Source: Candidatus Saccharimonadota bacterium (GTDB lineage: Bacteria; Bacteroidota; Bacteroidia; Cytophagales; Amoebophilaceae). From it: a DNA stretch of 32,000 bases. The notes beneath the pieces were generated by a model. The model did not search any database and was not told the DNA's origin. It was given only the letters and a program-made list of their open reading frames with translations. Each line of letters starts with the position of its first letter. The stretch's first letter is position 1. The stretch lies in NCBI RefSeq assembly GCF_965196625.1, contig NZ_OZ239769.1:690001-722000 (forward strand), in the 5' to 3' direction. Made by a program: the position numbers and the translations under genes. Shown here piece by piece: positions 6,195-11,963 of this stretch.

Positions 6195-6621
6195 CGGATA
6201 GAGCAGTTTTGATGCGTATGGTAATGGTCTGGGTCTTTACTATGGGTATTTTTTTGAGTGGATGGATTGGTAGGGGTGTTGCTAGCTTAATGTATCCCTC
6301 CCCACTGTGCCAACACTCCATCTTAATAAAACTGTTTTGAATACAAACAGAAATGTAAGATATCTATATAACATTAGCAATCCCATATTTTTTTATTTCA
6401 AAATCATACTATATTATACGTACGCATCATATAATCGTGCAGGAAACATGTAACCATGTTTATGGCATTAACTGTTCTAACAATATGGTCTGTGTTATTC
6501 GTTTTAATGCTATTGCAGCGGCCTCAATGCATACAGACCTATTAGATCCTACAAAAACTATTTATCTTGCAGTTGTACACCACGAATATATGCATCATTA
6601 TACACCTTAAATTTTTTAACC

Positions 6622-8388
6622 ATGCAAAAATTACCGATTGGTGTTAGTAACTTTCAAGAGTTAGTACAAGAGGATTATCTTTTTTGTGATAAGACAGCTA
6701 TGATTGCTGATTTCCTAAAAAGTGGCGATAAAGTTACTTTAATTGCCCGCCCTCGTCGATGGGGCAAGACACTCAATATGTCTATGTTGCAGCATTTTTT
6801 TGCATCAGAGGTGAATGGCCTCAGTACAGCAGGCTTATTTGATGATTTAGCGATTAGCCAGTTAGATGGTGGCAAATACCTTGCGGAATATCAAGGTAAG
6901 TATCCTGTGATTATGCTAAGTTTTAAGGATGTCAATGCGGATAGTTTTCAAGGGGCATACAATGCGGTGTATGAGTTGATATTAAAGGTGTATAGTAGCT
7001 ATACTTATTTATTGAGTAGTGATAAAATCAATGCAGTACAGCTGAATAAATTACGTATTATTCTCAGTAATCAGGCCAATCAACAACAATTAGAATCTGC
7101 TTTAGAATTGCTTAGTCAATGCCTCTACCAATACCATGGTCACCGTGTCTATATACTCATAGATGAATACGATACCCCACTCAACAAAGCTTACGGCAAT
7201 AAGGAATATTTGGATGCTATGGTCGCATTTATGCGTAACCTATTTAGCGCTGCTTTAAAAGATAATGATGCATTAGCAAGGGGTGTTTTAACGGGCATAT
7301 TGCGTGTTTCTAAGGATAGTATGTTATCTGGGTTGAATAACCTAAAAACGTATACCCTTTTAGATAAAGGTTATAGCCGTCACTTTGGTTTGAGCGAAGG
7401 AGAAGTTCAAGATCTATTTACCCAACAAAATCTTTCTACCTGTTTGGATGCAGTAAAAAGCTGGTACAATGGTTATCGAGTAGGAGATTTGGTCATGTAT
7501 AATCCTTGGTCTATTATCTATTGTTTGAGTGAAGAGGGTCGTTTTGATCTTTATTGGGTCAATACAGGTAATAATGATTTAATTAAGCAGTTGATTTTCT
7601 CTTCTAATGACAGCATTAAAGCGCAATTCGAACAATTGATGTGCGGGGAAGCACTAACTGTATCTATCGATAAACATCTTGCTTTTGACCTACTGAATAG
7701 AAGTGAAACTGCTTTCTGGAGTTTACTTTTATTTGCTGGCTATTTGACCTTCCAAACCAGTAATCTGAGTTTAGATAGTGATTTATACGACTGTATCGTT
7801 AAGATTCCCAATAATGAAATACGTAGACTCTACAATAGATTCTTTACAGAGTGGTTAAGTAGTAAGTTTATGGACCGAGGTGTTTATAATTCTTTTTTAG
7901 AACATTTGGTAGTTGGATCCGTATCTCTTTTTGTACAAGCGTTAAGTTTGTTTTTACGCCAAAGTGCTAGTTGTTTTGACACACAATTTTCTAGAAAATC
8001 AGAAGGATTTTACCATGGTTTTGTCTTGGCAATGTTGGCTAGTTTGGGTAGAACCCACTATGTAAAATCCAATCGAGAAAGTGGTTTAGGTCGTTATGAT
8101 CTTTTATTAATCCCTAAAAAAGAAGGTACAAAAGCGTTATTGTTAGAATTTAAGCAGGTACGTAAAGAAGAAGAATTGGAAAGCGCAGCTAGCCTTGCTT
8201 TATCGCAAATACAAACACAAGCCTATCATACTGAAATATTACAATATCCACATGTAAAAGAAGTAGTAGAATGCGGTATTGCTTTTTCAGGTAAATCGGT
8301 TTTAGCAGCTTATGCTACTTATAATTTAATGCGTAAGCAATCTGGTGCTATTCTGTTAACGAATAAATATGGGCAGGAAGATGAGTAG
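6622..8388 (+). CDS. AAA-ATPase-like + PD-(D/E)XK nuclease (PDDEXK_9-type) fusion protein, copy 1 (divergent N-terminal part)
   Basis: 588 aa. The N-terminus KLPIGVSNFQELV..YLFCDKTAMIADFL....VTLIARPRRWGKTLNMSMLQHFF matches the predicted AAA-ATPase (PF09820-type) signature. It has a Walker-B-like VYILIDEYD and the C-terminal nuclease core YHGFVLAML...YVKSNRESGLGRYDLLLIP....ALLLEFKQV (PF08011-type). Confidence 0.9.
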   Translation: MQKLPIGVSNFQELVQEDYLFCDKTAMIADFLKSGDKVTLIARPRRWGKTLNMSMLQHFFASEVNGLSTAGLFDDLAISQLDGGKYLAEYQGKYPVIMLSFKDVNADSFQGAYNAVYELILKVYSSYTYLLSSDKINAVQLNKLRIILSNQANQQQLESALELLSQCLYQYHGHRVYILIDEYDTPLNKAYGNKEYLDAMVAFMRNLFSAALKDNDALARGVLTGILRVSKDSMLSGLNNLKTYTLLDKGYSRHFGLSEGEVQDLFTQQNLSTCLDAVKSWYNGYRVGDLVMYNPWSIIYCLSEEGRFDLYWVNTGNNDLIKQLIFSSNDSIKAQFEQLMCGEALTVSIDKHLAFDLLNRSETAFWSLLLFAGYLTFQTSNLSLDSDLYDCIVKIPNNEIRRLYNRFFTEWLSSKFMDRGVYNSFLEHLVVGSVSLFVQALSLFLRQSASCFDTQFSRKSEGFYHGFVLAMLASLGRTHYVKSNRESGLGRYDLLLIPKKEGTKALLLEFKQVRKEEELESAASLALSQIQTQAYHTEILQYPHVKEVVECGIAFSGKSVLAAYATYNLMRKQSGAILLTNKYGQEDE

Positions 8389-8389
8389 C

Positions 8390-10156: not shown

Positions 10157-10157
10157 C

Positions 10158-11924
10158 ATGCAAAAATTACCGATTGGCGTTAGTAACTTTCATAAGTTAG
10201 TCTCTAACGATTACCTCTTTTGTGATAAGACAGCCATGATTGCTGATTTCCTAAAAAGTGGCGATGAGGTTACGCTAATTGCCCGTCCTCGTCGTTGGGG
10301 AAAGACACTCAATATGTCTATGCTTCAGCATTTTTTTGCATCAGAAGTAAATGGGATAAGTACAGCAGGTTTATTTGATGATTTAGCAATCGGTAAGGTA
10401 GATGGTGGTGAATATATTAAGAACCACCAAGGTAAACATCCTGTTATTATGATCAGTTTTAAGGATGTGAATGCAGATAGTTTTCAAGGGGCATACAATG
10501 CGGTGTATGAGTTGATATTAGAGGTGTATAGCACATATGCCTACTTATTGAATAGCGATGCAATTAATGAAATACAGTTAGGACAATTACATACTATCCT
10601 CAATAAGCAAGCCAATCAACAAGCATTAGAAAAATCTTTAAAGCTCCTTAGCCAATGCCTTTACCAACACCATGCTCAAAAGGTCTATATTCTCATAGAT
10701 GAATACGATACCCCACTCAACAAAGCTTACGGCAATAAGGAATATTTGGATGCTATGGTCGCATTTATGCGTAACCTATTTAGCGCTGCTTTAAAAGATA
10801 ATGATGCATTAGCAAGGGGTGTTTTAACGGGCATATTGCGTGTTTCTAAGGATAGTATGTTATCTGGGTTGAATAACCTAAAAACGTATACCCTTTTAGA
10901 TAAAGGTTATAGCCGCCACTTTGGTTTGAGCGAAGGAGAAGTTCAAGATCTATTTACCCAACAAGATCTTTCTACCTGTTTGGATGCAGTAAAAAGCTGG
11001 TACAATGGTTATCGAGTAGGAGATTTGGTCATGTATAATCCTTGGTCTATTATCTATTGTTTGAGTGAAGAGGGTCGTTTTGATCTTTATTGGGTCAATA
11101 CAGGTAATAATGATTTAATTAAGCAGTTAATTTTCTCTTCTAATGACAGCATTAAAGCGCAATTCGAACAATTGATGTGCGGGGAAGCACTAACTGTATC
11201 TATCGATAAACATCTTGCTTTTGACTTACTGAATAGAAGTGAAACTGCTTTCTGGAGTTTACTTTTATTTGCTGGCTATTTGACCTTCCAAACCAGTAAT
11301 CTGAGTTTAGATAGTGATTTATACGACTGTATCGTTAAGATTCCCAATAATGAAATACGTAGACTCTACAATAGATTCTTTACAGAGTGGTTAAGTAGTA
11401 AGTTTATGGACCGAGGTGTTTATAATTCTTTTTTAGAACATTTGGTAGTTGGATCCGTATCTCTTTTTGTACAAGCGTTAAGTTTGTTTTTACGCCAAAG
11501 TGCTAGTTGTTTTGACACACAATTTTCTAGAAAATCAGAAGGATTTTACCATGGTTTTGTCTTGGCAATGTTGGCTAGTTTGGGTAGAACCCACTATGTA
11601 AAATCCAATCGAGAAAGTGGTTTAGGTCGTTATGATCTTTTATTAATCCCTAAAAAAGAAGGTACAAAAGCGTTATTGTTAGAATTTAAGCAGGTACGTA
11701 AAGAAGAAGAATTGGAAAGCGCAGCTAGCCTTGCTTTATCGCAAATACAAACACAAGCCTATCATACTGAAATATTACAATATCCACATGTAAAAGAAGT
11801 AGTAGAATGCGGTATTGCTTTTTCAGGTAAATCGGTTTTAGCAGCTTATGCTACTTATAATTTAATGCGTAAGCAATCTGGTGCTATTCTGTTAACGAAT
11901 AAATATGGGCAGGAAGATGAGTAG
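10158..11924 (+). CDS. AAA-ATPase-like + PD-(D/E)XK nuclease (PDDEXK_9-type) fusion protein, copy 3 (identical to copy 2)
   Basis: The predicted protein is identical to copy 2. The start is placed at 10158 (MQKLP) rather than the track's 10137. Confidence 0.88.
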   Translation: MQKLPIGVSNFHKLVSNDYLFCDKTAMIADFLKSGDEVTLIARPRRWGKTLNMSMLQHFFASEVNGISTAGLFDDLAIGKVDGGEYIKNHQGKHPVIMISFKDVNADSFQGAYNAVYELILEVYSTYAYLLNSDAINEIQLGQLHTILNKQANQQALEKSLKLLSQCLYQHHAQKVYILIDEYDTPLNKAYGNKEYLDAMVAFMRNLFSAALKDNDALARGVLTGILRVSKDSMLSGLNNLKTYTLLDKGYSRHFGLSEGEVQDLFTQQDLSTCLDAVKSWYNGYRVGDLVMYNPWSIIYCLSEEGRFDLYWVNTGNNDLIKQLIFSSNDSIKAQFEQLMCGEALTVSIDKHLAFDLLNRSETAFWSLLLFAGYLTFQTSNLSLDSDLYDCIVKIPNNEIRRLYNRFFTEWLSSKFMDRGVYNSFLEHLVVGSVSLFVQALSLFLRQSASCFDTQFSRKSEGFYHGFVLAMLASLGRTHYVKSNRESGLGRYDLLLIPKKEGTKALLLEFKQVRKEEELESAASLALSQIQTQAYHTEILQYPHVKEVVECGIAFSGKSVLAAYATYNLMRKQSGAILLTNKYGQEDE

Positions 11925-11963
11925 CATGTATTGCTAATTTTTACCACTGCTTTAAACAAGTAC

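Follow-up and report, generated by a model that had tools for sequence, protein, structure and literature searches.

How does a gene come to stand three times in direct succession in the reduced genome of an endosymbiont, and can the steps that led there still be read? This question is raised by a stretch of 32,000 nucleotides (contig NZ_OZ239769.1, positions 690,001 to 722,000, forward strand), hereafter the window, within which all positions below are counted. The window, which derives from the Cardinium endosymbiont of Nabis limbatus, carries three adjacent genes of the DUF1703 family, each encoding an AAA-ATPase-like domain joined to a PD-(D/E)XK nuclease domain. It appears probable that these genes constitute a lineage-specific array, a local episode of the DUF1703 expansion known from Cardinium, which took shape in the three steps proposed below. 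The array is a fresh local example of an already described gene-family expansion and no new kind of system.

Structure of the Array

A repeat search placed three direct units on the forward strand, starting at 6621, 8389, and 10157, with spacings of exactly 1768 and 1768 bp. Unit 1 (6621..8388) contains the gene at 6622-8388 (variant A), whose product is 100% identical to WP_419241081.1. Unit 2 (8389..10156) contains the gene at 8390-10156 (variant B; product 100% identical to WP_419241082.1), and unit 3 (10157..11924), with its gene at 10158-11924, repeats unit 2 base for base. Each unit holds one intact open reading frame (ORF) of 588 amino acids (aa), and consecutive ORFs are parted by just TAG-C-ATG, which is also the junction of unit 2, a unit without upstream intergenic DNA of its own.

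The initial annotation had described the locus as a perfect triplication with a period of exactly 1768 bp, identical second and third units, and a terminal CATG whose recurrence gives the junctions microhomology. Base-by-base comparison bore out most of this description, including the three direct full-length genes and 0 differences over 1768 bp between units 2 and 3. However, the triplication is not perfect, since unit 1 differs from the other two at 99/1768 positions (94.4% identity) and is a mosaic. Maximal exact extension yielded a 2470-bp repeat on the forward strand, the left copy of which (7691..10160) equals 9459-11928; it is composed of the final 698 bp of one unit, the whole of the next, and the 4 nt CATG after the array. 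Its first part, 7691-8392 (702 bp), is the tract in which all three units agree at every base. A repeat of this kind is far beyond chance.

CATG occurs at the left edge of the array (6621-6624) and again just past its right edge (11925..11928, forward strand), so that the whole amounts to 3 x 1768 + 4 nt. The left edge reads ...TTAAC followed by CATGCAAAAA, and the right edge reads GAGTAG, CATG, and TATTGC in succession. Both internal junctions are identical (...GAGTAGCATGCAAAAA....) and can be read as ...GAGTAG-C-ATGCAAAAA.... A constant period, identical internal junctions, and a junction sequence explained by the outer edges mark the locus as a tandem duplication array, and CATG is inferred to be the footprint of the founding duplication.

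An exact repeat of this length raises the question of whether the assembly can be trusted. In an assembly artefact, only one or two units would be real, the repeat having been expanded, or strain variants A and B having been stitched head to tail. The exact array proteins and the junction are known from one assembly only, and two variants with a common, identical 3′ part are what co-assembled strains could resemble. On the other hand, the array lies inside a contig of 1,158,289 bp, and a 2470-bp exact tandem repeat cannot be placed without spanning reads; its presence within a 1.16-Mb contig therefore implies that spanning long reads existed. Assemblers tend to collapse rather than expand exact repeats. 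The junctions are clean and in register, every ORF is intact, and tandem DUF1703 pairs occur in an independent Cardinium genome and in metagenomes (see below), which argues that the array is biological. Such an artefact is thus considered very improbable.

Mosaic First Copy and Probable Exchange with Paralogues

Nearly all differences between unit 1 and units 2/3 (95/99) are confined to one divergent 5′ tract at 6642..7155 on the forward strand (codons 7-178, Walker A to Walker B), where identity drops to 82%; all 95 fall inside the first 535 nt of the unit. The other four are found at 7380, 7429, 7593, and 7690 (codons 253, 270, 324, and 357), and none occurs beyond. By the Nei-Gojobori method, the synonymous divergence (dS) in codons 1-180 is 0.59 and the nonsynonymous divergence (dN) is 0.13 (dN/dS 0.215), while dS in codons 181-588 is 0.012. 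Since a step of about 50-fold in synonymous divergence within one gene is impossible by mutation in place, the pair formed by unit 1 and units 2/3 is a recombination mosaic.

Possible partners for such exchange are found in the same genome. Seven further DUF1703 paralogues are located on the same contig (73-82% identity, 1/7 truncated), and together with the three array copies they bring the N. limbatus Cardinium genome to at least 10 DUF1703 copies. A patchwork is visible when the proteins are aligned with the same-genome paralogues and a sequence from the Cardinium strain cSfur. Over residues 120-180, copy 2 shares 92% identity with paralogue P0007 (78% overall) but only 65% with copy 1. The copy 2 motif HKLVSN (residues 12-17) recurs in P0003, P0007, and P0009, and the copy 1 motif QELVQE recurs as QELIQG or QELVQG in P0005, P0018, and cSfur P0002, which is also the nearest sequence to both copies in residues 250-360 (90-91%). 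P0003 and P0005 are near-identical to each other except for two segments. The variable tract corresponds to a helical insert between Walker A and Walker B. Nowhere else in the ATPase domain does the family vary as much as in this insert, with a peak at residues 121-150 in the entropy profile of a 52-sequence alignment. The insert could be a specificity module.

Proposed Origin of the Array

The end state of the array is what is observed, and the order of events and the crossover site, together with the co-transcription and conflict role discussed further on, are inferred from it. In the first step, a single gene would have been inserted 3′ of the CCA tRNA nucleotidyltransferase gene, and illegitimate recombination at the CATG microhomology would then have doubled it in tandem, with the ORF plus 1 nt as the repeated unit. 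Because the unit is limited in this way, the daughter copies would lack a promoter; the TAG-C-ATG spacing would permit translational re-initiation, which may explain why the duplication survived. In the second step, the two copies would have become mosaic, either because dispersed paralogues overwrote the 5′ third patch by patch through conversion or because the 3′ two-thirds became homogenised. In the third step, copy 2 would have undergone an unequal homologous crossover with copy 1 of the sister chromosome. The crossover is placed within 7691-8388 because this is the sole tract in which A and B are identical. It would yield A-B-B, with A unchanged, two identical B copies, and two identical junctions, and the A-B-B state predicted is the state seen. 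With 0 differences in 1768 bp, the third step would be very recent. The very recent amplification that the initial annotation had put forward holds for units 2 and 3.

The insertion in the first step can be set against other genomes. The CCA tRNA nucleotidyltransferase gene (4767..6194, forward strand; Pfam and NCBIfam matches) is the end of a block comprising DUF4290, UvrD/PcrA, alpha/beta-hydrolase, and CCA genes, which is syntenic in five other Cardinium genomes (L001-L004, L017). In none of these five is a DUF1703 gene found after CCA. Gene order beyond CCA differs between the Cardinium genomes compared, with synteny stopping right after this gene, and it therefore appears that the array occupies a lineage-specific insertion or rearrangement point. 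A clean empty site was sought in the other Cardinium genomes and not obtained, synteny breaking off directly past CCA.

The main biological alternative to a recent crossover is an old tandem array under concerted evolution, in which repeated conversion or unequal exchange homogenises the copies, except at the 5′ end of the array. Divergence within tandem arrays is typically greatest in the copies at the edge. That four differences are scattered over 7380-7690 and then give way to 702 identical bp points to several tracts of conversion rather than a single one (the chance of all four falling in the first 535/1237 nt is about 0.035), and two tandem sets from other loci (L054 and L089) likewise have more similar 3′ ends. 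However, 0 differences over a 1768-bp unit and identical junctions are more simply explained by one recent crossover. Moreover, the 5′ tract of unit 2 is nearer to the dispersed P0007 (92%, residues 120-180) than to its neighbour, which indicates ectopic exchange rather than simple edge decay, and the syntenic site is without DUF1703 in the five other Cardinium genomes. An old array of this type is accordingly judged unlikely.

Several points weigh against the stepwise history and the role proposed for the genes. The copy number rests on one assembly, and the donor tracts are visible at the protein level only. Continuing gene conversion could also be what keeps units 2 and 3 identical. The 426-bp intergenic region 5′ of copy 1 (6195..6620, forward strand, as read from the sequence) is the sole non-coding DNA that could house an array promoter, and no convincing match to a sigma-70 promoter or the Bacteroidota -7 motif was detected on the forward strand upstream of the array. 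The neighbours of the array are housekeeping genes, and their context provides no functional clue. In addition, the protein matched no family among NCBIfam, PADLOC, and PHROG models, of which the PADLOC and PHROG nulls bear on the proposed role; the lone PADLOC match was to BrxC (E 0.009, 11.8 bits), with no significant stretch.

Promoter and terminator scans upstream of the array returned nothing usable. Since neither copy 2 nor copy 3 is directly preceded by a promoter region, any expression of them would have to depend on read-through from 5′ of copy 1 combined with re-initiation at TAG-C-ATG. The stretch of about 20 nt preceding the ATG of copy 1 is similar to sequence upstream of a paralogue from another Cardinium, and tblastn revealed no fragments of neighbouring genes in 6195-6620.

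In classical tandem amplification, illegitimate recombination is followed by RecA-dependent unequal crossing-over. The array is similar in its CATG junction microhomology, and its identical junctions and units fit copy gain by homologous exchange. It differs in that the unit is the ORF plus 1 nt, with added copies devoid of a promoter, and in that sequence appears to have been exchanged with dispersed paralogues. The locus shows DUF1703 growth in a reduced endosymbiont genome with the proposed steps readable at base-pair resolution, namely microhomology duplication, ectopic conversion limited to one sub-domain, and homologous unequal exchange. The copy number between the CCA-enzyme and symporter genes is a possible assay of recombination and copy-number variation in Cardinium populations.

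DUF1703 Genes in Other Genomes

The expansion of DUF1703 in Cardinium was described by Siozios et al. in 2019, who reported 25 intact paralogues in the strain cCpun and smaller expansions in cSfur and cPpe (PMC6387759). It was also reported that the paralogues show reticulate evolution with RDP4-supported intragenic recombination, and that independent expansions of the family have taken place in several symbionts (PMC6387759). Since expansion and recombination of this kind have been published for Cardinium, such a family is expected here, and the earlier claim that the array is the most unusual thing in the window is overstated: at least seven further paralogues exist in this genome, and tandem pairs are found elsewhere. 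The array and the cCpun expansion are alike in the genus, in the combination of PF09820 and PF08011, in the many paralogues per genome, and in recombination among them. However, the paralogues of cCpun diverged long ago (mean 39% aa identity), no homogenisation was seen by the authors, and the word "tandem" is absent from their report (PMC6387759), whereas the N. limbatus copies are adjacent and 94-100% identical, their unit is ORF-exact, and the footprint of the duplication can still be read.

The family is very large, with 15,734 clusters at 50% identity (E ≤ 1e-3). Among 84 fetched loci that match the protein, almost exclusively metagenome contigs, 19 carry more than one family gene. Most adjacent pairs among the fetched loci are old (23-33% aa identity), while one locus (L089) holds three copies at 80-84% identity; in both L054 and L089, the 3′ ends are more alike (94%) than the remainder. 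In the Cardinium of Dermatophagoides farinae (CP101107.1; L103 13842-17700), an older adjacent pair shares 87.6% DNA identity over 1773 bp, separated by a 273-bp spacer, and its second copy is frameshifted into ORFs of 159 and 424 aa. Several family representatives of about 1100 aa hold two full DUF1703 units. Tandem duplication is a recurrent growth mode of the DUF1703 family. The N. limbatus array is a clean, datable example of such growth in an endosymbiont, although the function of the protein is not settled by it.

Other DUF1703 paralogues of the D. farinae Cardinium and of cSfur are single genes wedged between core genes; a third paralogue of the D. farinae genome lies 4 kb upstream of the pair, past mutL. 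The query matched in two or three stretches in six proteins of about 1036-1165 aa (P0130, P0158, P0177, P0200, P0243, and P0257), which appear to be tandem DUF1703 fusions or read-through gene calls. Family members were also found on 66 plasmids, including one Cardinium and one Rickettsia plasmid. On the Cardinium plasmid CP101109.1 (33.8 kb; L102 6697-11382), a DUF1703 gene with 71% identity to the window protein is flanked on both sides by inverted 660-bp genes for a "recombinase family protein", an arrangement that suggests a mobile cassette.

Domain Architecture and Predicted Structure

The ATPase-nuclease architecture recognised by the initial annotation, together with the profile search that it had called for, was examined with Pfam models. 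PF09820 (AAA-ATPase_like) covers residues 5-234 in both variants (E ~1e-45; 156.4 and 153.2 bits against a gathering cut-off of 26.1), and PF08011 (PDDEXK_9) covers residues 460-560 (E ~7e-18; ~65 bits against 25.5, or 67 bits with the segment scanned in isolation). As both models score above the Pfam cut-offs, the architecture is that of DUF1703.

The family-defining motifs were established by Knizewski et al. in 2007 as a Walker A variant RPRRxGK[ST], a Walker B DEYD, and a nuclease signature that combines PD-(D/E)XK (D, ExK) with a conserved acidic position in helix 1 and with Gln in helix 2 (PMC1913061). In all copies, the Walker A variant RPRRWGKT (43-50) and the Walker B DEYD (181-184) are intact. 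Across the 52-sequence alignment, R43, R45, R46, G48, K49, and D181-D184 are invariant; in the nuclease domain, with its E509-F-K511 motif, D493, E509, K511, and Q529 are invariant and E461 is nearly so. All copies keep the catalytic motifs and are under purifying selection.

An AlphaFold2 model of the protein is confident (pLDDT 88.9, pTM 0.86); residues 236-588 were also modelled separately (pLDDT 84.4). Searching the PDB by sequence returned no relative with a solved structure, and a Foldseek search of the PDB with the whole model gave only weak matches (E ≥ 2e-3), with Avs3 first, followed by ORC, p97, and Vps4-type ATPases. No Pfam domain was detected in residues 236-460 even at E ≤ 10. 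A hidden, degenerate second nuclease domain in this middle region, as in CifB, was considered and found no support in the sequence.

Comparison with Known Systems and Possible Role

No experimentally established function for the family was found in the literature, in agreement with the initial annotation. Siozios et al. proposed speculatively that DUF1703 proteins act as secreted nucleases and left their biological role open (PMC6387759). In the first 41 aa of the window protein, the maximal 12-residue Kyte-Doolittle hydropathy is 0.86 and no h-region is apparent, although this is a crude test.

Two groups of known proteins offer comparisons. The first is CifB, in which PD-(D/E)XK domains are united with an AAA-ATPase-like region (Amoros et al. 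2025, PMC12445526); CifB and the DUF1703 array both occur in reproductive-manipulator symbionts. With residues 236-588 as the query, the top four PDB matches in Foldseek were CidB ND1-ND2 and CinB structures (7fiw, 7esz, 7esy, and 7et0; E 4.7e-4 to 1.9e-3, prob 0.99-1.0, 13-17% identity, TM 0.24-0.27). These matches to the predicted model are a resemblance and not membership. Unlike CifB, the array protein has one PF08011 nuclease domain and not two, and no cifA-like partner is adjacent, the neighbours being the CCA enzyme and SSF symporter genes. Considerable core-site differences between DUF1703 and CifB-type nucleases were noted by Siozios et al. (PMC6387759).

The second group consists of defence ATPases. 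The top whole-protein Foldseek match, Avs3 (8dgc, E 2e-3, TMq 0.32), likewise joins a P-loop NTPase to a PD-(D/E)XK effector, and PF09820 is listed for the RADAR ATPase RdrA (PMC10952713). However, the DUF1703 domain order is reversed relative to Avs3, and a sensor resembling tetratricopeptide repeats is lacking. The array protein has no significant match to a PADLOC model, and the locus lies outside a defence island.

With regard to function, the copies most likely encode working ATP-dependent nucleases with a role in genetic conflict (defence, selfish element, or host effector) rather than in housekeeping, because intact motifs, purifying selection, expansion, recombination, and plasmid carriage of the family, and the weak fold resemblances all point in this direction.

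It may be asked whether the array was also favoured by selection. In an adaptive amplification, the symbiont would gain from an increased dose or from two specificities (A and B), for example, if the protein served in defence or as an effector aimed at the host. No copy is disrupted, dN/dS is 0.215, the variable tract coincides with the most variable ATPase segment (residues 121-150), and the family has expanded in several symbionts independently (PMC6387759); in the models, the nuclease half is nearest to CidB/CinB folds and the whole protein weakly matches Avs3. On the other hand, two identical copies would provide dose without diversity, and no signal-peptide-like hydrophobic stretch was detected by the crude hydropathy test. 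Small, drift-dominated endosymbiont populations also readily fix neutral or slightly harmful duplications. Selection for dose or specificity has a minor but appreciable chance of being correct. Like selection for dosage, the copy-number variation within the population that the initial annotation had predicted is speculative.

A more far-reaching proposal is that DUF1703 genes are self-promoting selfish genes or CifB-like effectors, in which breaks made by their own nuclease at paralogous loci would drive the conversion, the ORF-exact duplication, and the insertion of single genes among core genes observed in Cardinium. This is regarded as a long shot. If true, the array would be a live snapshot of such a process, with A and B as two specificities.

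Flanking Genes and Other Features of the Window

Downstream of the array, a gene of the sodium:solute symporter (SSF) family (11964..13361, reverse strand; Pfam and NCBIfam matches) is convergent with it, with 39 bp between its stop codon and the array. Only distant symporter paralogues (38-43% identity) occur near CCA in other Cardinium genomes. Beyond the symporter follow a coiled-coil ORF, glutathione peroxidase, and dnaE. DUF1703 and symporter fragments have been listed among the repeated elements of Cardinium cTPut ("AAA ATPase / SSS / HD fragments"; 2025 study, PMC12039267). A tie between these repeats and the flanking HD-domain and symporter genes was considered and set aside, as no fragments of either gene occur elsewhere in the window.

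Next to dnaE (16008-19445), a 303-aa PDDEXK_2 gene (PF12784, Rpn/YhgA-like "transposase") was found at 19486-20397 on the reverse strand. PDDEXK_2 is a second PD-(D/E)XK family, widespread in Cardinium, Wolbachia, and Rickettsia and often cif-associated (PMC12445526).

Several other ORFs on the reverse strand are without a Pfam domain. The ORF at 13623-15152, whose 509-aa product is coiled-coil-like with a faint Rad50-like match, contains in-frame tandem repeats of 21 and 42 bp at 13686-13800, and the ORF at 20705-22258 contains an in-frame 57 bp x 4 tandem repeat at 21197-21422; both may encode repeat-bearing symbiont proteins. ORFs at 22640-23866, 24026-24886, and 28073-29179 (408, 286, and 368 aa) also had no Pfam match.

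A dispersed repeat of 107 bp (~81% identical) occurs at 3175-3281 and 22414-22520, both sites being intergenic, the former 5′ of the alpha/beta-hydrolase gene and the latter adjacent to tRNA-His (22302-22376). Either a small repeated element or a regulatory region common to both sites could account for it. Besides the PcrA/UvrD gene at 682-2961, the window encodes a second UvrD-like helicase of 869 aa (25416-28025, reverse strand), whose N-terminal helicase domain is spread over residues 8-436, which suggests a large insertion in this domain.

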